Source: an uncultured virus (IMG/VR IMGVR_UViG_3300027708_000036) | Lineage: Duplodnaviria; Heunggongvirae; Uroviricota; Caudoviricetes | DNA length: 64,000 nucleotides | Reading direction: 5' to 3' (one strand) | Virus record (IMG/VR): IMGVR_UViG_3300027708_000036 | Shown here: one piece after another, positions 1,460-62,763 of the stretch | Layout: each line of letters starts with the position of its first letter | Position numbering within the stretch: position 1 is the first letter of the stretch | The notes under the pieces: generated by a model | What the model saw: the letters and a program-made list of their open reading frames with translations, nothing else | Databases searched by the model: none | What the model was told of the DNA's origin: nothing | Position numbers and translations under genes: made by a program

Positions 1460-1784
1460 ACCTTATGTTGTAGTGGAGTCCAAATATAGTGGACTTGATG
1501 CGATAAAGTTGACAGAAGAGCCATGGCAGGGTATAATATATGCTTATGGTAAGGTTGAGTTTGAAGAAGATGAAATCGACTCAACCATTCATCTAAAATT
1601 TGATTATGAAATTCTTGATGATGGTGGAAAGGGTTTCACCAATAAGAAACCATTTGAAGAATACATTGGTAAAATCTTGGAAGAATTGCTTCATGAAGGC
1701 ATCCAAGAAAACAATTTAACATATACAGGCGGAACAGAAATTGATGCGAATAGAACAAAAGATTCTGAGCAATCTGATATTTGA
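1452..1784 (+). CDS. gp40-like head vertex assembly chaperone
   Basis: Small acidic protein in the uvsX-40-41 position conserved in T4-like phages. Confidence 0.6.
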   Translation: MSKPYVVVESKYSGLDAIKLTEEPWQGIIYAYGKVEFEEDEIDSTIHLKFDYEILDDGGKGFTNKKPFEEYIGKILEELLHEGIQENNLTYTGGTEIDANRTKDSEQSDI

Positions 1785-3135
1785 TGAGAACTATTGTCGT
1801 AAAGTAATCCCATTTATCAAGAAAGAATATTTTGCAGAGCGCAAAGAAGTAATCTTGGCAGACGAGATTGTTTCTTTCTTCACGAAGTATAACAAACCAG
1901 CATCCAAAGAAATCCTACAGATTGAAATTAGCAACAGGAAAGATCTCAACGATAAAGAGTTATCTGAACTTGGCGACTTTATCGGCACATTGAGTCAGGA
2001 ACCAGTCAATGAAGACTGGATGTTAGAACATACTGAAAAGTTTTGTAAAGATAGGGCAATTTATAATGGAGTTCTCTCGGCAATCAGAATCATTGACGGC
2101 AACGACAAGCAACATACGCAAGATGCGATCCCTTCTATTCTTTCTGATGCTCTTGCCGTTTCATTTGATAATCATATTGGGCATGACTATCTTGATGACC
2201 ACAATGAGAGGTATGATTTTTATCATAGGGTGGAAGAGAAGGTTGCATTCGACCTTGACATGTTCAATAAAATCACTAAGGGTGGACTATCAAAGAAAAC
2301 ACTTAATATTTGTCTTGCTGGCACTGGTGTTGGTAAGTCTTTGTTTATGTGTCACGTGGGTGCAGGTTGCCTAACTCAAGGTAAAAATGTCTTATACATA
2401 ACTATGGAAATGGCAGAAGAGCGTATCGCTGAAAGGATTGATGCGAATCTTCTTAACCTAACCATGGATGAACTAAAAGTTATTGACAGGGATATCTATG
2501 AAAGTCGTATTGCTAAGATTACGGCTAAAACTAAAGGTAAACTAATTGTCAAAGAATACCCAACTGCTGGTGCCCACTCTGGTCACTTCCGTGCTTTGCT
2601 GGAAGAACTAAAGTTGAAACGAGAATTCAAACCTGATATTATCTTCATTGACTATCTCAATATTTGTGCGAGTCAACGAATGAAACAAGGTGGAAGTATT
2701 AACTCTTATACATATATTAAGAGCATTGCAGAAGAGTTAAGAGGATTGGCAGTTGAGTATAATGTTCCCATTGTATCAGCCACTCAAACGACTCGTTCTG
2801 GATTCACAAACTCGGATCCAGGACTTGAAGACACCTCTGAATCTTTTGGTTTGCCAGCGACAGCTGACTTTATGTTTGCTTTGGTCAGCAATGAAGAGTT
2901 GGAAGGATTGAATCAGATTATTGTTAAACAGTTGAAGAATCGCTATAACGATCCAGGATTCTATAAGAGATTTGTTATTGGGGTTGATAGAGCAAAGATG
3001 AAACTGTATGATGTAGAAGCATCGGCACAAACGCTAAGTGATTCAGGAAAGCACGATGACGATGAACCAATGTTTGATAAAAGTAATTTTGGTCGCAGAC
3101 AAAAAGCAGAATCGTTTGACGGATTTAAGTTTTAG
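1744..3135 (+). CDS. 41: gp41 replicative DNA helicase (DnaB-like)
   Basis: LAGTGVGKS Walker A, IFIDYLNI Walker B, SATQTTR, KQLKNRY. Confidence 0.96.
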   Translation: MRIEQKILSNLIFDENYCRKVIPFIKKEYFAERKEVILADEIVSFFTKYNKPASKEILQIEISNRKDLNDKELSELGDFIGTLSQEPVNEDWMLEHTEKFCKDRAIYNGVLSAIRIIDGNDKQHTQDAIPSILSDALAVSFDNHIGHDYLDDHNERYDFYHRVEEKVAFDLDMFNKITKGGLSKKTLNICLAGTGVGKSLFMCHVGAGCLTQGKNVLYITMEMAEERIAERIDANLLNLTMDELKVIDRDIYESRIAKITAKTKGKLIVKEYPTAGAHSGHFRALLEELKLKREFKPDIIFIDYLNICASQRMKQGGSINSYTYIKSIAEELRGLAVEYNVPIVSATQTTRSGFTNSDPGLEDTSESFGLPATADFMFALVSNEELEGLNQIIVKQLKNRYNDPGFYKRFVIGVDRAKMKLYDVEASAQTLSDSGKHDDDEPMFDKSNFGRRQKAESFDGFKF

Positions 3136-3143
3136 GAGAGAAT

Positions 3144-4469
3144 ATGACTAAGGTAATCGTAGCAAAACAAAAACATGATATGTCTCACATGATGGGACAA
3201 TTTCCAGATGAGTCACATTATGATTTCCTCATTGAAGAGGACTGTGATGTTTATATGCCAGAAATTCCTGGACATCCAGAGATGACATACTCTGAAGAGA
3301 GAATCGTTTTGAAGTTCCGTAAGAATTACTTTACAAAAGAACAACAAGATCAAGCATACATTGGACTTCGTGAAGCAGCAACCGAAACTCAGAATAGAGG
3401 TATGGCTGCAGGTCCAAGAGCAGAGAAGTTGGGTAATCGTGAGTGGGTCACTGAATATGAATCAGAAATTATTGATTACTTCTTGAATCCAAAGGCATCA
3501 CTGGACGGAGATCCAATTGATGTTATTAAAGCCAAGCATGAAGGTAAGACTGATAAACCATCTACCAGAAATAATGTTTGGGGTATCCAAGCAGTTAAGA
3601 AAGATAAATTTGTTTTCAATGAGTGGGTTGAGAAAGTTCGTAAATTAGATGCATCTGATATGGTTATCGAAGCAAGACGAGTAGAAAAAGCATATGTCTG
3701 CGCAACTACCTATGCCAATGGTGTTATGTCTGGTATTGCTGGTTGGTTCGATCGTTATCCTCGCATTCCTTATGGTCGTGCAACATCTTATACTGCTCGT
3801 GAACCAGCAAAGTTTGCCATGGCATATCCATTCTTGCAACAACTTGCGCAGGGTTTTAAAGACTTGTTGCCATGGAGATACAACAATCAAATGGAAGCAG
3901 CAAAGAAACTGGATCCTGCATTCTTAGTTCCAGAAACTCCATTCACTACTGTTACTGTTAATAAGTCTTTCAGAACTGCTTGTCACTACGATGCAGGTGA
4001 CTTTACTGCTGGTCTATCCAATCTATTGACTCTAACAAACAATGGTAACTATACAGGTTGTTATTTGGTTGCACCAGAGTATCGTGTTGCTGTTAATCCA
4101 AGACCTGGAGATTTGCTACTCATTAACAATCATGAAGTGATGCATGGCAATACTCAGATTCAATTGCTCGATGAAGAAGCAGAGCGAATCTCATTAGTTG
4201 TTTACTTCCGTGAGAAGATGCTTGAGTTGGGTTCAAAACAATACGAAGATTGTCGTTATGACTTTGTTGAACACCGCAGACTTAACAAAGAACATCCAGA
4301 CCAAAAATATGAAGATGGTTCTCAACGACATCTTTGGAATGGTGTTAGTTCTTCTATGTGGGAATCAGAAGAATGGTATGAATACCTTGAGAGTAAACTT
4401 GGTAATGATATACTAATGAAGTATCACCCAGAATCACAAAAGGCAAATTCACTTGAAGGATTCTTCTAA
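3144..4469 (+). CDS. TET/JBP-family 2OG-Fe(II) dioxygenase (DNA pyrimidine methyl oxidase)
   Basis: PFTTVTVN, RTACHYDAGD (HxD), HEVMHGNT (distal His) and ERISLVVYFRE (2OG-binding Arg) match the TET/JBP signature. Confidence 0.82.
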   Translation: MTKVIVAKQKHDMSHMMGQFPDESHYDFLIEEDCDVYMPEIPGHPEMTYSEERIVLKFRKNYFTKEQQDQAYIGLREAATETQNRGMAAGPRAEKLGNREWVTEYESEIIDYFLNPKASLDGDPIDVIKAKHEGKTDKPSTRNNVWGIQAVKKDKFVFNEWVEKVRKLDASDMVIEARRVEKAYVCATTYANGVMSGIAGWFDRYPRIPYGRATSYTAREPAKFAMAYPFLQQLAQGFKDLLPWRYNNQMEAAKKLDPAFLVPETPFTTVTVNKSFRTACHYDAGDFTAGLSNLLTLTNNGNYTGCYLVAPEYRVAVNPRPGDLLLINNHEVMHGNTQIQLLDEEAERISLVVYFREKMLELGSKQYEDCRYDFVEHRRLNKEHPDQKYEDGSQRHLWNGVSSSMWESEEWYEYLESKLGNDILMKYHPESQKANSLEGFF

Positions 4470-5161
4470 TGTGTTCAGTGATTGGTGCGATTATTAAAGA
4501 ACCTCGTGCAGAGGATTTCTTAATGCTTCATCGTGTGTTCCTTGAATCTAAGATTCGAGGGATGCACGCTACTGGAATCTCCTATGTTAAGCATGGAAAG
4601 ATTATCACTGAGAAGCGACCAGTTCCTGCCGATGAATTCCCATTCAACTTTCCAAGTTATGTGAATGAAGATGGTAGTCTTTATTTAATTGGTCACTGTC
4701 GTTATAGCACTAGCGATTTAGAATTCAATCAACCAATTGCCAACGAGAATCTTTCAGTAGTTCACAATGGAGTTATCACTCAAGAGTTACCTGAGAAGTG
4801 GAAAGAACTCTATGGTTATGATTGTGAAACTAAAAACGATACTGAATTGATTTTACATACAGCAGAGGATTGCATCAGTCCATTGATTCGCTGGAAAGAT
4901 TCAAGTCTTGCAGTTATTGAATTACATGTTGATAAAGTTATTAGATTCTATCGCAATGGTAAGCGTCCATTATACTTGACAAATATCTCAAATGGATGTA
5001 TAATTACTTCTACTGCTGATGTTCCAAAACGAGCAGAAGTTCCAGGATTTCCGATTAACACTTTGATGAATCATTACATTACATTTGATGACCAACTCGC
5101 AATGACAATTGAAAAAGAAGTCATTGAAGATGCGGTGGACTTACAATATGAACTTTGTTAA
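4469..5161 (+). CDS. class II (Ntn) glutamine amidotransferase-like protein
   Basis: N-terminal Cys2 nucleophile (MCSVIG), RGMHATG, GHCRYSTS, VHNGVI, NDTE. Confidence 0.85.
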   Translation: MCSVIGAIIKEPRAEDFLMLHRVFLESKIRGMHATGISYVKHGKIITEKRPVPADEFPFNFPSYVNEDGSLYLIGHCRYSTSDLEFNQPIANENLSVVHNGVITQELPEKWKELYGYDCETKNDTELILHTAEDCISPLIRWKDSSLAVIELHVDKVIRFYRNGKRPLYLTNISNGCIITSTADVPKRAEVPGFPINTLMNHYITFDDQLAMTIEKEVIEDAVDLQYELC

Positions 5162-5789
5162 TTCAACAAGAGTTGAAGAGTTAATTAAAAATAGTCCAGC
5201 TGGTAAGAATACCAAATTCTTATCGGCTGCACATTCATTGTGGTATCGTTTCCACAATTATGATAAAGCACCACCACTGGCTCTTGAAGTAAATGGTGAT
5301 GTTGTTTCGCTAATCTTTGCGACATTCAATCGTGATGGTTATGCGAATCTATATGAGATAGTTACACTTGAAGGACAAGAAGGAAATGGTTATGCAAGTA
5401 AATGCTGGGATGAATGGATCAAATATGCAGTCGGAGAACGCAAAACCCAACGACTTAAAATGTCATGCACTCCATCTTCCGTTACATGGCACAATAAAAA
5501 TGGTCTCATCTTCTGGGCAGTCGATCCAACTGGCTCTCTTAGATCTGACCAACCATTATTTCCTACGAGAGTGGAACAAATAGACTATCGTAATAATGCT
5601 ATTGTCAGCCCACTTCAAGCACTGCCACCATACAAAGCAAGAGATCAATTTCGTGCTGAAGGATTAGAATCCTATAAATGGGGTGAAAAGAAAAGAGCAA
5701 AAAGTCAAGCAGCAATTGATGCAGTTGGTAAGGCATGGTTGAGAGAAGCACTAATGGAACAACCTTCACTTGAAGAGTTTTTATTATAA
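5148..5789 (+). CDS. GNAT-like acyltransferase
   Basis: LYEIVTLEGQEGNGYAS resembles acetyl-CoA-binding motif A (Q/R-x-x-G-x-A/G); ATG at 5148 overlaps the upstream gene. Confidence 0.6.
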   Translation: MNFVNSTRVEELIKNSPAGKNTKFLSAAHSLWYRFHNYDKAPPLALEVNGDVVSLIFATFNRDGYANLYEIVTLEGQEGNGYASKCWDEWIKYAVGERKTQRLKMSCTPSSVTWHNKNGLIFWAVDPTGSLRSDQPLFPTRVEQIDYRNNAIVSPLQALPPYKARDQFRAEGLESYKWGEKKRAKSQAAIDAVGKAWLREALMEQPSLEEFLL

Positions 5790-6808
5790 TGGATTATAGA
5801 CTAGAACAAAATCGTAGGGAAGCGTTCATTCGTTGGTATGCATGGTCATTGAAGTATGATGATTGTGATCCAGCAGTATGGGCAACGAACTATCTTAACA
5901 AACGATATGAGCATAATGATGAGCAGAAGTTATGGTTGTGTTGGTTGTATGGTAATACATACTATCTTCCAACTGCTTGGATTCTCATGAATGAGTTTCC
6001 TGACTTTGAGTTGGCAACAGTTGATCGTATTACTCAATGGAACACTGCCAACTATAAACGATTAAGATATCAGACTGATACAAAGTGGAACAAAGGACAT
6101 CTCCCTGCGATGTTTGCTTCTTATCAGCAATTCATTGGTAATAAAACACAACGAGAAAAACTGAAAGAATACTATGGACAATCTGAGGAAGAGAACTTTA
6201 ATAATCTGTGGACAGGCATTAAGTCTGGGTTGCATAAGTTTGGTCGTTATTCCACTTGGTTTTATCTTCAGCATCTTAAGCATACTGCTGGTGTCCATAT
6301 CACTCCTACTAGCCTCATGCTTGATGATTATGATGGGTCTCGCTCTCATCGTAATGGATTACTTCTCGCCATTGGGAAAGATGACGATATGGACAGAAAA
6401 CTCACTGGAGTCGATTATTCAAATCTGGAAGCACAAGCGAGGGACATTCTCGTTGAGACGAAAGAAAGATTCCCAGAACTGGACTCACAAATAGATTACT
6501 TTACCATGGAAACCTGCCTATGTTCTTTCAAAAAGATTTTCAGAAAGAGTCATGGAAGGTATCTTGGTTACTATCTTGATAGACAAGCAGAAGAAATTAT
6601 GCAGTGCGAGAAAGATGGTTGGTATGGTATTGATTGGAATGTTCTATGGCAATCAAGAGAAGAAACAATTGATTTTAGATTAGACCATAGACATGGTATT
6701 GATAAAGAGAAATTTACATCTTTCCTTAGCACTGGTGGAATGCAGAATATGGATTGGATGTTTGATGATGAAGAACCTATATTAAATGGATTGGAGATGT
6801 TTACATGA
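5789..6808 (+). CDS. amino acid:DNA transferase (aGPT-Pplase2 / AADT, HhH-glycosylase fold)
   Basis: KFGRYSTWFYLQ, GSRSHRNGL, METCLCSFKK and GRYLGYY resemble the alpha-glutamyl/putrescinyl thymine pyrophosphorylase clade 2 enzymes; lies next to a P-loop kinase. Confidence 0.78.
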   Translation: MDYRLEQNRREAFIRWYAWSLKYDDCDPAVWATNYLNKRYEHNDEQKLWLCWLYGNTYYLPTAWILMNEFPDFELATVDRITQWNTANYKRLRYQTDTKWNKGHLPAMFASYQQFIGNKTQREKLKEYYGQSEEENFNNLWTGIKSGLHKFGRYSTWFYLQHLKHTAGVHITPTSLMLDDYDGSRSHRNGLLLAIGKDDDMDRKLTGVDYSNLEAQARDILVETKERFPELDSQIDYFTMETCLCSFKKIFRKSHGRYLGYYLDRQAEEIMQCEKDGWYGIDWNVLWQSREETIDFRLDHRHGIDKEKFTSFLSTGGMQNMDWMFDDEEPILNGLEMFT

Positions 6809-7206
6809 GTACGATGACACTTGACAGTAATGGAAATCTTGGAGTTGGAACTATTACAGTTTCTTCTAATACTACTGGTATGTATAATACCGCAGTTGGA
6901 TCTAGTGCACTTGCATTTGGTGGATTCGATATGGAAGACTTTCTTGATACACATTCGTTTAATAAGATTACAGTTGAGCATAAGGTTGCAGAGTTCGAGT
7001 TAGCCAAATTAAGAGAAACTGTTCCAACTTATGCAGATGAGATTAAAGAAAACTTGTCTAAGAATCTTGCAAGAGATATAATTAAGAAAGCAACATTCAC
7101 AAAGAAACATAATGTTGATAGCGACACTCATCACTTTCTTGGAAGAGTATGGGTGTTCACTGAAGGCGAATTAAAGGATCTAATTAATGAGGCTCGCAAT
7201 GCGTAA
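6805..7206 (+). CDS. hypothetical protein
   Basis: 133 aa ORF overlapping both neighbours, preceded by GGAG. Confidence 0.6.
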   Translation: MSTMTLDSNGNLGVGTITVSSNTTGMYNTAVGSSALAFGGFDMEDFLDTHSFNKITVEHKVAEFELAKLRETVPTYADEIKENLSKNLARDIIKKATFTKKHNVDSDTHHFLGRVWVFTEGELKDLINEARNA

Positions 7207-7741
7207 GATTATCGCTGTTGGTGGACAACCTGGAACTGGTAAGACTACTCTATTCCGTAAGTTCATGGAAGGTAAGACTTGGGAAAGAGTCGAACCAAAG
7301 AAAATGCTTCCTGCACTCTATTGTAAAGACCTAGACTTATACATTCTAGGTAAGTACGAGGATGGTGAAACCTTCGCTGGAACAGATCGCCTATCAATGG
7401 CAGTCCAGCCAGTGGCACAAGAGTTCGTTAAGGAAACTACCTCCAATATTCTCTTTGAAGGAGATCGAATTTTCAACCAGTCTTTCCTAGAGTTTTCTAT
7501 GAATATGCAAGGTATTGATTTACAAGTGGTTTATCTTAAAGTACCTGATTCCACGCTAAAAGAACGCTACATCGAGCGAGGATCCGACCAGTCTGAGACT
7601 TTCCTAAAAGGTCGTGCGACTAAATATAGTAATCTACTATCAAACTTTGAACTGATGCCTTATATTACTGAGTTTAGTAACACTAACTTGGAGGAGCAGG
7701 GAAAGGTACTCGCATTCTTGGAAGGTAATTTCAAGATGTAA
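7199..7741 (+). CDS. P-loop kinase, putative 5-hydroxymethyluracil DNA kinase
   Basis: IIAVGGQPGTGKTT P-loop, FAGTDRLS, LFEGDR and RGSDQSETFLKGR; lies in the modification cluster. Confidence 0.75.
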   Translation: MRKIIAVGGQPGTGKTTLFRKFMEGKTWERVEPKKMLPALYCKDLDLYILGKYEDGETFAGTDRLSMAVQPVAQEFVKETTSNILFEGDRIFNQSFLEFSMNMQGIDLQVVYLKVPDSTLKERYIERGSDQSETFLKGRATKYSNLLSNFELMPYITEFSNTNLEEQGKVLAFLEGNFKM

Positions 7742-22180: not shown

Positions 22181-23212
22181 ATGTTATACATTGATGCAAA
22201 GTATGCCCAAATACTTGGGTCTCGCTTGCGAAACTTCAAACAAAAGAAAGATTATCTCTGGAACTATTCATGTCCAGTTTGTGGGGATAGCACATCCAAT
22301 AAATTAAAAGCACGTGGTTACATCTATCGTGCAAAGGCAGATCTATTTGTGAAGTGTCACAACTGTGGTTACGGCACGAACATCGGTAATCTAATTAAGT
22401 ATGTTGATACAAAGTTGTATGATGAGTATGTGCTTGAACGATATAAGTCTGGTGCAACAAGATACAATGACCACAAAGATATCTCTGAAACTCAAGTAGT
22501 TCTTGAGACAGAACCAGAAAATTTACTTGAAGATGATATTCTCTCATCTCTCTCAAGACTAGATAAACTACCACTGACACATCCTGCTGTTCAGTATGTA
22601 GTTAAAAGAAAGATTCCGAAGGACAAATGGAGTCTCCTGTACTTTGCTCCAAAGTTTAAGGCATACACTAACTCAGTGACTGCCAAATTCCAAGAGCCAA
22701 TACAAGACGAACATCCAAGGATGATTATTCCATTTTTTACTAATGCTGGTAAGTGTTTTGCTTATCAGGCTAGAGCGTATGGAAATGAAGAGCCTAAGTA
22801 TTATACCATCAAGGTGGATGAGACTCAGGAAAAGATTTATGGACTTGAAAGGATTGATTATGCTAAAAGAATACTTGTGGTCGAAGGACCAATTGACTCG
22901 CTTTTTCTACCAAATGCAGTGGCTGTTTCAGGAGCAAGTTTTGATACCCCTACTATTAGGAGTATTCTTGCTAATGCAACGATTGTAATGGACAATGAAC
23001 CAAGAAATAAAGACATTGTCAAACAGTTAGAGAAGTATATCAATCTAGGTTATTCTGTCTGTATGTTTCCAGAACACATAGAACAGAAAGATGTGAATGA
23101 AATGATTTTACATGGCGGAATGACTGCCGATGAAATTACCGATGTCATAAATACAAACACCTACTTTGGTATGGAAGCAAAATTGAAATTTGGTACATGG
23201 AAGAAAATATGA
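22181..23212 (+). CDS. 61: gp61 DNA primase
   Basis: CPVCGDS...CHNCG zinc finger and TOPRIM motifs VEGPIDS, DNEPRN, KDVNEM. Confidence 0.95.
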   Translation: MLYIDAKYAQILGSRLRNFKQKKDYLWNYSCPVCGDSTSNKLKARGYIYRAKADLFVKCHNCGYGTNIGNLIKYVDTKLYDEYVLERYKSGATRYNDHKDISETQVVLETEPENLLEDDILSSLSRLDKLPLTHPAVQYVVKRKIPKDKWSLLYFAPKFKAYTNSVTAKFQEPIQDEHPRMIIPFFTNAGKCFAYQARAYGNEEPKYYTIKVDETQEKIYGLERIDYAKRILVVEGPIDSLFLPNAVAVSGASFDTPTIRSILANATIVMDNEPRNKDIVKQLEKYINLGYSVCMFPEHIEQKDVNEMILHGGMTADEITDVINTNTYFGMEAKLKFGTWKKI

Positions 23213-23877
23213 ATGTCAGGATGATTAGTTATAGCAAACCCGATGAGAAAATGTTCCAAGAAGGTTTAGTAGATGTACAGGAGTTAGTTGCATTCTGTGC
23301 AAGAGTGAGTAATCCCAACAACCAACTCAACACAGAGACATCAGAGAAGTTAATTAAGTATCTCATCAAACATCAGCATTGGTCACCACTAGAAATGGTC
23401 AGTGCTTGTTTAGAAATTGAAACTACTCGTGATATAGCAAGACAAATCTTGCGTCACCGCTCTTTCTCGTTCCAAGAATTTAGCCAGCGATATGCTGATC
23501 CAACAAAAGACTTATCTTTCGTTCTAAGGGAAGCCCGACTCCAAGATACGAAGAATCGTCAAAATAGTGTTGAGAATACAAATCTAGCATTGGCAACATG
23601 GTGGGAAGAAAGACAAAAGCGAGTGATAAGAGAAGCTGAAGAAGCGTATGCTTGGGCAATCGAAAATGGTATTGCCAAAGAGCAAGCAAGAGCAGTACTC
23701 CCAGAAGGACTAACTGTTTCTCGTTTATACATGAATGGTACACTAAGATCGTGGATCCACTTCATTGAATTACGATCGGCAAATGGTACACAAAAGGAAC
23801 ACCAAGAAGTCGCACGACAATGCGCAAAGGTTATTGCTGAGGTATTCCCTCTAGCAAATGAATTAGTAAAACTATAA
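23209..23877 (+). CDS. thyX: flavin-dependent thymidylate synthase
   Basis: RHRSFSFQEFSQRY ThyX motif, HWSPLE, QKEH. Confidence 0.96.
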   Translation: MNVRMISYSKPDEKMFQEGLVDVQELVAFCARVSNPNNQLNTETSEKLIKYLIKHQHWSPLEMVSACLEIETTRDIARQILRHRSFSFQEFSQRYADPTKDLSFVLREARLQDTKNRQNSVENTNLALATWWEERQKRVIREAEEAYAWAIENGIAKEQARAVLPEGLTVSRLYMNGTLRSWIHFIELRSANGTQKEHQEVARQCAKVIAEVFPLANELVKL

Positions 23878-25689: not shown

Positions 25690-26682
25690 ATGATTACAAA
25701 AACAAAAACAAGATTAACGGATACAAGAGATTCATTTAAACCTTTTAACTATCCATGGGCATATGATGCTTGGTTGAAACATGAACAAGCACACTGGCTG
25801 CACTCAGAAGTACCAATGGCTGAGGATGTTAAAGACTGGAAAAAGAAATTAACAAATGAAGAAAAAACCTTTCTTACGAACATCTTCCGATTCTTCACTC
25901 AAGGAGACATTGATGTTGCTGGTGGTTATGTTAATAATTATCTGCCTCATTTCCCTCAACCTGAAGTAAGAATGATGTTAATGGGTTTTGCTGCTCGTGA
26001 AGCATTACACATTGCTGCATACTCTCACCTAATCGAAACACTGGGATTACCAGAATCTACTTACAACCAATTCCTTGAATATCAAGAGATGAAAGATAAG
26101 CATGACTATGTACTTGAACTTTCTAGTCGCAATGGTACTATCGCTAGTACTGCTGAGCACATTGCTGTTTTCAGTGCCTTTACTGAAGGCATGCAGTTGT
26201 TTAGTTCTTTTATCATGTTGCTTAATTTTCCTCGCCAAGGCATGATGAAGGGTATGGGTCAAATTGTTACTTGGTCTATTGCCGATGAAACAATCCATGC
26301 TGAGTCTATGATTAAGTTGTTCCGTGAGTATATCAAAGAAAATCCTGAGATCTGGAATGACGAATTAAAGGGTAAGATATATACAATCGCTGAGAAAATG
26401 GTAGAGTTAGAAGACAAGTTTATTGATCTTTGCTATCAAGGTGCAGACATGCGTGAACTATCTGCAGAAGATGTTAAGAAATATATTCGTTACATTGCAG
26501 ATCGTCGTCTAATCTCTCTTGGCATGAAAGGTATCTTTAAAGTTAAAAAGAATCCACTTCCATGGGTCGAAGAAATGATCAATGCACCAGTACACGGAAA
26601 CTTCTTTGAGAATCGTGTTACTGATTATGCTAAAGGTGCATTGTCTGGCACATGGGGTGATGTATGGGGTAAAGCAGCGTGA
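25690..26682 (+). CDS. nrdB: ribonucleotide reductase class Ia beta subunit
   Basis: REALHIAAY, EGMQLFSSF, DETIH, NFFENRVTDY. Confidence 0.96.
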   Translation: MITKTKTRLTDTRDSFKPFNYPWAYDAWLKHEQAHWLHSEVPMAEDVKDWKKKLTNEEKTFLTNIFRFFTQGDIDVAGGYVNNYLPHFPQPEVRMMLMGFAAREALHIAAYSHLIETLGLPESTYNQFLEYQEMKDKHDYVLELSSRNGTIASTAEHIAVFSAFTEGMQLFSSFIMLLNFPRQGMMKGMGQIVTWSIADETIHAESMIKLFREYIKENPEIWNDELKGKIYTIAEKMVELEDKFIDLCYQGADMRELSAEDVKKYIRYIADRRLISLGMKGIFKVKKNPLPWVEEMINAPVHGNFFENRVTDYAKGALSGTWGDVWGKAA

Positions 26683-27383
26683 TAGAGTTAATCTATCTGT
26701 TGGCTATGACTCACATTACCATTGTGTGCGTCACTTTATATCTTCATAGAGGACAGACACACAGAGGAATAACTTTTCATCCAGTTGTTGCACACTTCAT
26801 GCGTTTCTGGTTATGGCTTACTACTGGTATGGTAACTAAACAGTGGGTAGCTATTCATCGTAAACACCATCAGAATTCTGATAAAGAAGGTGATCCGCAC
26901 ACACCTCATGTGTATGGTATTTGGAGAGTGGTCTTCGGTGGTGCTTTACTTTACCATGATGCCAGTAAAAATAAAGAGATGATTGCTCAATACGGAGTTG
27001 GAACTCCAGATGATTGGATGGAAAATAACATTTACTCTAAACATAGCAGAGCAGGTATTATGCTAATGTTAGCCATCAATATTATTTTGTTTGGTTGGAT
27101 TGGTCTGCTTCTATGGGGTATTCAGATGATTTGGATTCCATTCTGGGCAGCAGGTATTGTCAATGGTGTTGGTCATTGGTTTGGTTATCGTAACACGGAC
27201 ACCAAAGATCGTTCAAAGAACATATCAATGTTCGGAATCATTATTGGTGGTGAAGAACTACACAATAATCACCACGCTGAACCAGCAAACCCTAAATTAA
27301 GTAGAAAATGGTTTGAATTTGATATTGGATGGATGTGGTTTAAGATACTACAAAAACTAAAACTAGCCGAGACTAAACAATGA
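26679..27383 (+). CDS. delta-9-type fatty acid desaturase
   Basis: Three His boxes HRGQTH, HRKHH and HNNHH plus TM helices. Confidence 0.92.
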   Translation: MIELIYLLAMTHITIVCVTLYLHRGQTHRGITFHPVVAHFMRFWLWLTTGMVTKQWVAIHRKHHQNSDKEGDPHTPHVYGIWRVVFGGALLYHDASKNKEMIAQYGVGTPDDWMENNIYSKHSRAGIMLMLAINIILFGWIGLLLWGIQMIWIPFWAAGIVNGVGHWFGYRNTDTKDRSKNISMFGIIIGGEELHNNHHAEPANPKLSRKWFEFDIGWMWFKILQKLKLAETKQ

Positions 27384-32621: not shown

Positions 32622-33047
32622 ATGGCAGAAGTTAAAAAAGACGAAGACTGGATGCAAAAGAAATGGCGTCCAGCCATGGGTTGGATGTACATGTTAGTCT
32701 GTATGATGGACATGGTTGTGTTCCCAGTTTTGTGGTCTATACTACAAGCAGTTACTCATACTCCAATCACTCAGTGGAATCCATTAACACTGCAAGGTGC
32801 TGGTTTATTTCACTTAGCAATGGGTGCAGTATTAGGTATCGCAGCATTTGGTAGAACTCAAGAGAAAATTGCAGGAAGCGCAACAAATGCACCAACACCA
32901 GCCTTACCAGCAAGCGTGCCAACAGCACCTAGCATGCCTGCACCAGTACCAATGGCTCCAAGACCAGTACCAATGGCACCACCTCCAGCACCATCAATGG
33001 ACTTATTGCCAGACGATCCACCGACACGCAACACTCGTAACGACTGA
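32622..33047 (+). CDS. holin-like membrane protein (GTA 3TM holin-like)
   Basis: WRPAMGW...LGIAAFGRTQEK with a Pro-rich tail. Confidence 0.6.
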   Translation: MAEVKKDEDWMQKKWRPAMGWMYMLVCMMDMVVFPVLWSILQAVTHTPITQWNPLTLQGAGLFHLAMGAVLGIAAFGRTQEKIAGSATNAPTPALPASVPTAPSMPAPVPMAPRPVPMAPPPAPSMDLLPDDPPTRNTRND

Positions 33048-33826
33048 TGAACTATCGCACGATATTCATAAGTGATGTTCACTTAGGTACTCGTGATTGT
33101 CAAGCAGATAAGTTAAATAACTTTTTGAAACATAACACCTGCGAGACTTTATATCTCGTGGGTGATATAATTGATGCTTGGAAGATCCAACAGAACAAGT
33201 GGCGATGGAAACAAAGCCACACTAATGTTGTCCGCAGAATACTTGGTCATGCCAAGAGAGGAACGAGAGTTGTTTATGTTGCAGGTAATCATGATGAATT
33301 CTTAAGACCGATGATCCCATATGGATTCTCTTTCGGTCTGATTGAAATAAAAAATCAAACAGAACATATCGGTGTAGATGGTAAACACTATCTTATAACT
33401 CATGGTGATTTATTTGATGGTATTACAAGACTGGCTCCATGGCTTGCATTTCTTGGTGATAAACTCTATGACTTAGTTCTTGATTGGAACTCTCGTTTCA
33501 ACTGGATTCGTCACAAACTAGGGTTTGGATACTGGTCACTGTCTAAATACCTAAAGCATAAAGTAAAGAAAGCATCTGACTTTATGTTTCAATTTGAACG
33601 TAATCTTGCAGGCTATTGCAAGAAACGAGGTTACGATGGAGTCATCTGTGGGCATATTCATCACGCTGAAATAAAAGATATTGATGGTATAATCTACATG
33701 AATGATGGAGATTGGGTTGAATCCTGCACTGCTTTGGTCGAGCATCATAACGGTAAGTGGGAAATTATTACATGGACTAAAGAGAATGACAAAGAAGATA
33801 CTGATAGTAACAGACAACCTACCTGA
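33047..33826 (+). CDS. LpxH/PlcP-like metallophosphoesterase
   Basis: ISDVHLG, LVGDIIDAW, GNHDE, HGDLFD, CGHIH, NDGDWVESCTAL. Confidence 0.88.
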   Translation: MNYRTIFISDVHLGTRDCQADKLNNFLKHNTCETLYLVGDIIDAWKIQQNKWRWKQSHTNVVRRILGHAKRGTRVVYVAGNHDEFLRPMIPYGFSFGLIEIKNQTEHIGVDGKHYLITHGDLFDGITRLAPWLAFLGDKLYDLVLDWNSRFNWIRHKLGFGYWSLSKYLKHKVKKASDFMFQFERNLAGYCKKRGYDGVICGHIHHAEIKDIDGIIYMNDGDWVESCTALVEHHNGKWEIITWTKENDKEDTDSNRQPT

Positions 33827-34778
33827 TCAAATCAATGGTGTCGTTACCACTTACAAAAATATTGAAGCATGTGCGATTCGGGATGGTTATACTGTTGATT
33901 ATCTTGATCCCAGCAGGTTCCGCTATTTTGATTGCCCTCCCTACAACGAAGTCAAGATTACCATTCCGTGGCAGGTGGGCAAGAAGATTGAGGAGATCAA
34001 TCCAGATTATATCCACATCGCCACCGAAGGTACTTTGGGTTTGTGGGCTAGAGCATATCTTTCAAAATGTGGTATTAGCCACAATACTGCTTATCATACT
34101 AAGTTTCCTGAGGGACTTAAAACCCTATTTGGCATTCCTGAGTGGATAACATGGAGATTTGTTCGCTGGTTTCATAAACATAGTGGTAAGGTATTAACAA
34201 CCACTGAGACAATGGTGAAAGATCTTAAAGCACATGGGTTTGGTGGAGAAGTTATTCCATGGACTCGTGGTGTTGATAGAGAAATATTTAATCCATCGCA
34301 CAGAAACGACAATATCAATGGTAAATATTTGCTCTGTGTTTCTCGTGTTAGCAAAGAAAAGAATCTTGAAGAATTTTTTAAATTAGATTATCCTGGATAC
34401 TACAAAGTTATGGTTGGTGATGGACCAATGCTTGAAACATACAAGAAACAGTATCCTGAGGTAATCTTTACTGGATTTAAGACTGGTGTTGATTTAGCCA
34501 AATGGTATGCAAATGCTGAAGTGTTTGTATTTCCTAGTCAATGGGAAACATTTGGTATTGTAATGATCGAAGCGATGGCTTGTGGTACTCCAGTTGCAGC
34601 ATTCCCATGCGATGGACCATTAGATGTTATTGATCAAGCAGAAACTGGATTCATGAATGACAATCTTAGCGATGCAATTGATGGTTGTTTACAGTTAAAT
34701 AGGGATAGAGTGTTAAGGGGTAGCCAGCGATGGAGTTGGGAAAATGCTTGGAAAATCTTCAAAAATAACCTAACTTAG
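33786..34778 (+). CDS. GT4 family glycosyltransferase (Agt-like)
   Basis: QINGVVTT, IHIATEG, AYHTKFPE, RGVD, SRVSKEKN, ETFGIVMIEAMACGTPV. Confidence 0.9.
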   Translation: MTKKILIVTDNLPDQINGVVTTYKNIEACAIRDGYTVDYLDPSRFRYFDCPPYNEVKITIPWQVGKKIEEINPDYIHIATEGTLGLWARAYLSKCGISHNTAYHTKFPEGLKTLFGIPEWITWRFVRWFHKHSGKVLTTTETMVKDLKAHGFGGEVIPWTRGVDREIFNPSHRNDNINGKYLLCVSRVSKEKNLEEFFKLDYPGYYKVMVGDGPMLETYKKQYPEVIFTGFKTGVDLAKWYANAEVFVFPSQWETFGIVMIEAMACGTPVAAFPCDGPLDVIDQAETGFMNDNLSDAIDGCLQLNRDRVLRGSQRWSWENAWKIFKNNLT

Positions 34779-62071: not shown

Positions 62072-62455
62072 ATGGCTTATTCCGATAAAGTTATCGACCA
62101 CTATGAGAATCCACGTAATGTGGGTTCTTTGGATAAAAACGATCCATCGGTTGGTACTGGAATGGTTGGTGCACCTGCGTGTGGTGACGTGATGAAGTTG
62201 CAGATTAAAGTTGAAGATGGAATTATTACCGATGCAAAATTCAAAACATATGGATGTGGATCTGCTATTGCAAGTTCCTCTCTTGTTACCGAATGGGTTA
62301 AAGGCAAGACATTGGAGCAAGCAGCAGTTATTAAAAATTCAGACATTGCTCAAGAACTCGCATTGCCCCCAGTCAAAATCCATTGTAGCATCCTTGCTGA
62401 AGATGCCATCAAAGCAGCAATAAACGACTATCAACTAAAGTGTGCGTGCGTATGA
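62072..62455 (+). CDS. iscU: Fe-S cluster scaffold IscU
   Basis: [41 protein letters not shown]. Confidence 0.96.
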
Positions 62456-62763
62456 TTACCGTAACAGAATCCGCAAAGAAACAACTCGATGAGATCCTAA
62501 TGGATGATGTATCGATGAAATATGTAAGAGCATTCATCACTGGTGGTGGTTGCTCTGGTTTTAATTATGGGTTTACACTTGAAGCAGATAAAGAAGAAGA
62601 TGACTTCGTTATTGACAATCTTGTAGTTGATGCCATGAGTATGCAGTATTTTGACAACGCTACTATAGATTTTACTAGTGATAAATTAAAAGGATCTCAA
62701 TTTGTTATATCAAACCCAAACGCAAAATCAACCTGTGGATGTGGAAGCAGTTTCTCAGTCTAA
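62452..62763 (+). CDS. A-type Fe-S carrier (IscA/ErpA/HesB family)
   Basis: [19 protein letters not shown]. Confidence 0.93.

Follow-up and report, generated by a model that had tools for sequence, protein, structure and literature searches.

Why would a phage place a glutamine amidotransferase (GATase) and an acetyltransferase among enzymes that probably modify its thymines, and which base would they make together? The question is raised by a gene cassette in a 64,000-nucleotide stretch (the window, analysed at full length) of the uncultured virus IMGVR_UViG_3300027708_000036, a T4-like myovirus found in freshwater metagenomes, which has genes for UvsX, gp41 helicase, NrdAB and ThyX in the window. 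The cassette encodes a TET/JBP dioxygenase (TET), a GATase, a GNAT acetyltransferase, a DNA transferase (ADDT, or aGPT-Pplase2), a small protein (orf133) and a P-loop kinase (Table 1). With moderate confidence, we propose a pathway that would lead from thymine through 5-hydroxymethyluracil (5-hmU) and 5-phosphomethyluracil to 5-aminomethyluracil, with glutamine as the nitrogen source, and on to 5-acetamidomethyluracil. An earlier note on this DNA had suggested that the product could be a new base; the likeliest end product, 5-acetamidomethyl-deoxyuridine (5-AcNmdU), is instead a known structure, described in vitro for phage PaMx11.

Are the genes what they appear to be? Six packed open reading frames (ORFs) on the plus strand adjoin the 3' side of the helicase gene and overlap at every junction (TAATG at TET/GATase and at GNAT/ADDT; 14 nt at GATase/GNAT, with the GNAT ATG at 5148; ATGA at ADDT/orf133; 8 nt at orf133/kinase). 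The earlier note had placed five enzymes here, contiguous and translationally coupled next to the helicase; the junctions as read from the sequence bear this out, and its positions and strand were right, while the ORF of 133 amino acids (aa) inside the cassette was missing from its list. Its five identities also hold. In the TET (PF12851), H281-x-D283, H334 and the 2-oxoglutarate-binding R348 are invariant among 21 sequences, and the modelled fold, on which the earlier note had made this assignment depend, matches CcTet, TET2 and NgTET1 (AlphaFold pLDDT 85.6; E 4e-10 to 2e-9). The GATase has the N-terminal Cys and the glutamine-binding residues of class II enzymes (C2 in at least 90% of 30 sequences; R30, part of an R30-G31 pair, R78, N100, G101 and D124 invariant), and its profile, from 16 sequences, can be aligned to PurF and matches only PurF, GlmS and AsnB among solved structures (E <= 0.001). 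The ADDT is recognized by its profile (PF18724) and by E241 and C245, which are invariant in 59 sequences and align with the E..C motif of M6 gp51, PaMx11 gp46 and ViI gp247; its sequence profile matched no solved structure. The Pfam match of the GNAT is marginal and is backed by the modelled fold (pLDDT 71.6), which matches GNAT acetyltransferases and, at 0.98-0.99, atlas GNAT clusters. The kinase has a Walker A motif at residues 7-15 and resembles M6 gp54 (35% identity over 55 aa, E 0.001).

The cassette is real, intact, widespread and of a published kind. The five enzymes have median dN/dS values of 0.05-0.10, orf133 has 0.19 and the helicase 0.05 (7-12 pairs each), which indicates purifying selection on all cassette genes. 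One scan of IMG/VR gave 327 relatives of the TET, and among the best 80 of these the gene order is conserved as far as each contig extends, except that some loci have inserted genes and one lacks orf133. Contigs of relatives span the cassette (21-29 of 30 bins) in four metatranscriptomes, which without a silent control is no proof of transcription. In a collection of 50,697 cultured-phage records, we found no GNAT of the window type, and the GATase matches listed, 30 of 68, were PaP3-like proteins (24-28% identical); the collection thus yielded no cultured phage that has the cassette in full.

Where does the hydroxymethyl group come from? Two further records, G001 (131 kb, identical to window positions 12359-64000 and extending 79 kb further, with capsid, tail and gp32/gp59 genes) and L290 (99.99% identical, adding 9.6 kb upstream), bring the coverage of this phage to 152,948 bp, and two relatives, G002 (100% complete, TET 95% identical) and G003 (96% complete), were examined beside it. 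No hydroxymethylase, C5-methyltransferase or ParB appeared in Pfam scans of the ORFs of the window (13 + 74), of G001 (79) and of the upstream piece (6). The thymidylate synthase family (PF00303) and the C5-methyltransferase family (PF00145) had no match in G001 (controls were positive in 10 and 12 of 14 genomes) nor, together with ParB (PF02195), in G002 and G003, and profiles made from cassette-linked ParB, hydroxymethylase and amidoligase had none in the window, G001 or G002. The absence of a visible dUMP hydroxymethylase or C5-methyltransferase, which the earlier note had remarked on for the window, thus extends over nearly the whole phage and its relatives, and the ThyX that it had reported is encoded by this phage and by both G002 and G003. 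Because no alternative gene was found and ThyX is present, we assign the 5-hmU to the TET, and post-replicative oxidation of thymine is supported as its source. This part of the earlier scheme, a dioxygenase acting after replication and followed by kinase and transferase, stands; the amidotransferase as a tailoring enzyme probably does not, as argued below.

The neighbourhood (GATase, P-loop kinase, amino acid:DNA transferase, no C5-methyltransferase) is that of clade C1 of the phage dioxygenases. The adjoining ParB activator of its ParB-dependent subclass was found in none of the window, G001, G002 and G003. The window TET differs from the ParB-linked forms by a variable insert of about 100 aa and a C-terminal extension (432-490 aa in gp41 loci versus 296-328 aa in ParB loci). 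In a tree made without published sequences and without an A/B or C2 outgroup, the long T4-type TETs form a separate branch (SH-aLRT 95) beside the short ParB-linked forms, a 5mYOX177-like one included.

Is thymine the target? The apparent source of hmU is a long TET in 61 loci (gp41 loci), ParB with a short TET in 32 and a dUMP hydroxymethylase-like gene in 5. In L103, L173-175 and L177, the GATase/ADDT module accompanies a thymidylate-synthase-like dUMP hydroxymethylase and a kinase for 5-hydroxymethyldeoxyuridine (5-hmdU), so the substrate of the module should be hmU. In L181 (ParB-TET-GATase-GNAT-ADDT), the first 60 residues of the TET, compared by eye, include 52 that are identical in the tested 5mYOX177, which gave about 8% hmU with ParB (PMC13229309). 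Both pairings point to T. Restriction-site counts agree: over 143,330 bp (window plus G001), CCGG (0 observed/44 expected), CGCG (0/68) and GGCC (4/90) are purged, and all 12 T-containing four-base palindromes are retained at 40% or more. UvsX-selected relatives without TET (17 loci) keep CCGG (238/325) and GGCC (455/431) and are depleted in GATC (454/1223); the 16 loci with the cassette have CCGG at 1/76, GGCC at 18/194 and GATC at 1058/1463. In Pelagibacter phage HTVC008M, TCGA is purged (0/47). GCNGC is also partly depleted in the phage (GCCGC 6/29), and together with CCGG, CGCG, GGCC and GGTACC this gives a fingerprint of host restriction systems.

What, then, does the GATase do? Enzymes of this kind, as established for PurF, GlmS and AsnB, require an acceptor for their ammonia. 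The distribution of the gene suggests which one. A search with the ADDT only gave 34 loci that extend 2.5 kb or more upstream (16 of 50 were left out as too short), and GATase is present in every one; it is likewise present in all 109 distinct ADDT loci that passed a length filter (256 examined, partly chosen by GATase or TET queries). A search of genome contigs gave seven loci, with GATase visibly adjoining or fused in six of them. An unbiased search based on UvsX yielded 38 loci with enough sequence: 15 have the GATase cassette, 5 a TET without ADDT (in those checked, a glycosyltransferase comes after the TET), 17 neither, and one, L325, TET-ADDT-kinase without GATase. The ADDT of L325 is distant (27% identical to that of the window, equally near that of the cultured phage Cr30), and in both L325 and Cr30 an inositol-1-phosphate synthase gene lies downstream. 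Lacking GATase and holding this synthase, the two fit a rule by which the neighbour of the transferase seems to supply its nucleophile.

GATase and ADDT are also found fused. A scan of 23 long ADDT relatives, drawn from the top 150 of 363 matches, gave eight GATase-ADDT fusions (seven with GATase_6 N-terminal to ADDT, the eighth, P0048, aligning with those), two TET-ADDT fusions and five that contain a kinase; in a quick tree the GATase-ADDT fusions are scattered over several ADDT branches. GATase is kept where GNAT has been lost or replaced by an amidoligase. The only constant electrophile for its ammonia is the methylene intermediate of ADDT described by Lee et al. (PMC8989533). Given the fusions and the constant co-occurrence, we consider the GATase a partner of the transferase and probably its nitrogen supply, which makes ammonia a more likely incoming group than an amino acid. 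In the literature covered, which leaves out subscription papers, we found no published proposal of an ammonia donor for such transferases.

If ADDT makes a primary amine, an amine-acylating enzyme might be expected beside it. In the 109 loci this slot holds the window-type GNAT (75), an amidoligase with a different GNAT (21), an amidoligase without GNAT (7, with a low-molecular-weight phosphatase-like gene alongside), or a GNAT that is fused or of another kind (3), and it is empty in 3. Amine-acylating enzymes of two unrelated types thus interchange, as expected for an amine product. The companion of the amidoligase at L158:7685-9072, L173:8699-10058 and P0002 is either a GNAT of a second family or a low-molecular-weight phosphatase-like protein, the latter also occurring fused to ADDT.

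How would these enzymes reach DNA without ParB? TET, GNAT and ADDT end in short tails that resemble the C-terminus of DNA polymerase, and the phage's own polymerase has a matching terminal peptide; its gp33 and gp55 ORFs do not match the pattern. In G002, the pattern occurs on 4 of 165 ORFs (TET, GNAT, ADDT and polymerase), against 0.23 expected. Tails were listed for 57 TET, 49 GNAT and 39 ADDT distinct relatives; in gp41 loci they occur on 59 of 61 TETs, 48 of 51 GNATs and 61 of 61 ADDTs, as against 0 of 32 ParB loci. T4 gp43, gp55 and gp33 bind the gp45 sliding clamp by such C-termini (PMC2988020), and we suggest that TET, GNAT and ADDT are probably carried on gp45 as well. ParB activates the short C1 enzymes on double-stranded DNA (PMC13229309); the clamp may do that job here in its place, which would explain why ParB-less enzymes appear inactive alone.

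The proposed pathway would run as follows. The phage would replicate with ordinary T via ThyX, and on the finished DNA the TET would hydroxylate some of the thymines, giving 5-hmU, whose hydroxyl the kinase would phosphorylate to yield 5-phosphomethyluracil. Cys245 and Glu241 of ADDT would expel the phosphate through an exocyclic methylene and add ammonia that GATase draws from glutamine, giving 5-aminomethyl-dU (5-NmdU), and GNAT would acetylate the amine to 5-AcNmdU. TET, GNAT and ADDT would ride the clamp by their tails, in place of the ParB activator of small phages, and the modification would shield the DNA from restriction. The oxidation of T by clade C1 enzymes and the chemistry of kinase and ADDT are carried over from published relatives.

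Several observations weigh against this proposal. The nucleophiles described for characterised clade-2 transferases are amino acids or polyamines, never ammonia (PMC8989533); the nearest of these enzymes, ViI gp247, is 27% identical, and where an amidoligase is present the GATase could work for that enzyme instead. The GNAT has no BLAST relation to PaMx11 gp48, the proven 5-NmdU acetyltransferase. ParB-less clade C1 members were reported inactive when expressed alone (O'Toole et al., PMC13229309), and searches for two motifs of the long form, with no match in 12 supplementary files of that paper, suggest that no long T4-type TET is among its Dataset S11 constructs. The tail pattern was picked after the tails had been seen, and the contrast between tails and ParB is a single contrast between lineages. 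About 10 kb of the phage genome lies outside the coverage. Finally, GCGC stays near its expected count (100/108), CGCG is scarce even in loci without TET (43/122), the T-containing hexamers GGTACC (3/36) and AACGTT (0/9) are depleted, phages with ParB-type cassettes still purge TCGA (10/108), and the loci counted are interrelated and uncontrolled for host. The site signal is imperfect, but partial, context-specific modification, as in the tested enzymes, would fit it.

Could the product be something else? In the version of the earlier note, the group attached by ADDT would be a free amino acid, as for the enzymes of M6, PaMx11 and ViI, GATase would amidate or trim it, and GNAT would acetylate the result to an undescribed base. 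The substrates of the tested clade-2 transferases (diaminopropane among them, PMC13458397) speak for this version, as do the amidoligases of 28 of the 109 loci, which could amidate a carboxylate with ammonia from GATase. However, activation of a carboxylate would call for an ATP-dependent ligase, which the window cassette lacks, and GATase persists without a ligase in 81 of the 109 loci and is fused to ADDT; we regard an amino acid adduct as unlikely. The pathway might also stop at 5-aminomethyl-dU, with GNAT acting on a protein, a small molecule or another base. GNAT is missing without replacement in 3 of the 109 loci, its Pfam match is marginal, and it is unrelated to gp48. Yet in two unrelated phage types (48% identity) its gene lies between those of GATase and ADDT, it shares its tail type with TET and ADDT, and it swaps with amidoligase; such an early end appears improbable.

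Two more alternatives concern the activity of the GATase and the target base. The N-terminal nucleophile (Ntn) enzyme could be a gamma-glutamyl hydrolase of the EgtC/DUG3 type: ADDT would add a gamma-glutamyl thiol or amine such as glutathione, the Ntn enzyme would remove the glutamate, and GNAT would acetylate the freed amine. The glutamate-binding residues are common to both Ntn types, and the amine-acylating slot would be accounted for too. M6 gp51 takes a thiol (beta-mercaptoethanol) in vitro (PMC8989533). The solved structures matched by the profile are nevertheless only those of the ammonia donors, and we think this hydrolase route very improbable. Still harder to credit is 5-methylcytosine (5mC), made by a host methyltransferase, as the target instead of thymine: 5mYOX176 and 97 show similar in vitro activity on 5mC and on T (PMC13229309), but the phage has no C5-methyltransferase in the sequence covered, the module pairs with dUMP hydroxymethylase elsewhere, and the purged CCGG, CGCG and GGCC consist of C and G only.

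Returning to the ammonia pathway, a broader and more tentative proposal is possible, though we would not call it probable. GATase and ADDT may form a two-subunit, glutamine-dependent amino:DNA transferase that puts a primary amine on T; in T4-like phages, oxidase, transferase and acetylase would ride the clamp, replacing ParB, and the amine would be a branch point that amidoligase-bearing relatives extend to undescribed bases. This would address the amidotransferase and amidoligase partners left unexplained by Lee et al. (PMC8989533), and, with gp45 as the missing activator, the ParB-less C1 enzymes left so by O'Toole et al. (PMC13229309). If true, a set of four enzymes could equip the T of any DNA with a primary amine, useful as a handle for labelling, and the phage group concerned is common in fresh water.

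Table 1. Cassette genes, candidate clamp-binding tails and context genes in the window (Pfam scores in bits, with cut-offs)
Feature	Positions	Strand	Basis
TET/JBP (5mYOX) dioxygenase, long T4-type, 441 aa	3144..4469	+	Tet_JBP 94.8 (cut-off 34.9)
TET C-terminal tail, candidate gp45 clamp-binding peptide	4446..4466	+	resembles DNA polymerase tail
Class II (Ntn) glutamine amidotransferase (GATase), stand-alone, 230 aa	4469..5161	+	GATase_6 40.1 (cut-off 27)
GNAT acetyltransferase, 213 aa, helical C-terminal extension	5148..5789	+	Acetyltransf_1 21.3 (cut-off 20.7, marginal)
GNAT C-terminal tail, same type	5763..5786	+	resembles DNA polymerase tail
ADDT / aGPT-Pplase2 DNA transferase, 339 aa	5789..6808	+	ADDT 78.4 (cut-off 26.2)
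ADDT C-terminal tail, same type	6788..6805	+	resembles DNA polymerase tail
orf133, 133 aa, low-complexity variable N-terminus	6805..7206	+	ORF read, no Pfam match
P-loop nucleotide kinase 3, 5-hmU DNA kinase candidate, 180 aa	7199..7741	+	Ploopntkinase3 41.5 (cut-off 27)
gp41-type helicase, context	1744..3135	+	directly upstream of cassette
ThyX thymidylate synthase (ordinary dTMP), context	23197..23877	+	

The remaining cassette gene, orf133, has no Pfam, PHROG or convincing atlas match (best 0.86). It is confined to T4-like cassettes, missing from some of them and from the ParB-type ones, and so it is probably not needed for the chemistry. Other genes are inserted in the cassettes of relatives (L070:6770-8270, L077:12889-16420, L067:9190-9810, L072:11362-11965, L080:6010-6595, L015:5386-6057). 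From their translations we take these to be proteins with a CxxxCxxC radical-SAM motif, 2-oxoglutarate-oxygenase-like ORFs and a nuclease-like ORF; the ORF in L015 had no match in the family scan. Elsewhere, the window carries host-like genes: a fatty-acid desaturase (26679-27383), a metallophosphoesterase and glycosyltransferase pair (33047-34778) and a NifU/IscA iron-sulphur assembly pair (62072-62763).

Across relatives, the slot behind the gp41 helicase holds differing DNA-modification sets. Cr30 (L001:10001-18894) and L325:10466-15368 have a long TET, the distant ADDT, the inositol-1-phosphate synthase, a small DxD phosphatase-like ORF and a kinase, a gene set that suggests an inositol-substituted thymine; among the literature matches listed, none reports such a base or modified Cr30 DNA. 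At L316:11940-13286 and L309:9561-10565 and in DLP6 (L002), C48C1 (L003) and S-CBWM1 (L004), a long TET is accompanied by glycosyltransferases instead of ADDT, and the product is probably a glycosylated hmU similar to base J; the L316-type glycosyltransferase likewise bears a polymerase-like terminal tail. In TET-less relatives (L319:7216-8322 and similar loci), the slot holds a 369-aa DruA-like protein (PF14236, 32.5 bits), possibly another DNA-modifying enzyme. Prophage-like loci in metagenome-assembled genomes of Bacteroidota (L286:1340-4992, L288:5265-8513) have a ParB-like gene, GATase, ADDT, kinase and, last, a very divergent TET-like gene.

How does the cassette compare with known systems? 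Lee et al. (PMC8989533) describe contigs with TET_JBP in place of dUMP hydroxymethylase and name amidotransferases and amidoligases as functionally unexplained partners of thymidine hypermodification genes. O'Toole et al. (PMC13229309) demonstrate phage T-dioxygenases and define clade C1, whose enzymes, as far as examined, have about 250-335 aa, by GATase, P-loop kinase and AADT (amino acid:DNA transferase) neighbours, and Burke et al. (PMC8256090) mention TET together with kinase and transferase. The central inference of the earlier note, TET in place of the hydroxymethylase in this neighbourhood, is therefore already published; the product is not. The closest systems are the clade C1 neighbourhoods (PMC13229309; PMC8989533, Fig. 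2, sequences 22-25), which share the gene families and, in small phages, the order ParB-TET-GATase-GNAT-ADDT-kinase and likewise lack a C5-methyltransferase and a dUMP hydroxymethylase. Compared with the ParB locus L104, identity is 43% over 181 aa for TET, 33% for GATase, 48% for GNAT, 54% for ADDT and 37% for the kinase. The window phage differs in having no ParB in the sequence covered, a longer TET with insert and polymerase-like tail, and a T4-like genome.

The 5-AcNmdU pathway of PaMx11 (gp49 kinase, gp46 glycine:DNA transferase, gp47 FAD lyase, gp48 acetyltransferase; PMC8989533) offers a kinase, a clade-2 transferase with catalytic Glu and Cys, a GNAT and the same predicted end product. 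By BLAST, its gp46 and gp48 do not significantly match any window protein, and neither the FAD-dependent glycinylthymine lyase nor dUMP hydroxymethylase is among the Pfam matches of window or G001 ORFs. In PaMx11, hmU is made before replication and the amine is unmasked from glycine by a flavin enzyme, whereas here it would come from glutamine via GATase. The nearest characterised ADDT, the serine:DNA transferase gp247 of Salmonella phage ViI (5-NeOmdU; match over 296 aa, E 2e-24), belongs to a system with a serine ether, a PLP decarboxylase, hmU from dUMP hydroxymethylase and no GATase. As for the tails, they share with the gp45 ligands gp43, gp55 and gp33 a short hydrophobic-acidic C-terminus, common also to the phage's own polymerase; the candidate tails here differ in that they appear to sit on base-modifying enzymes.

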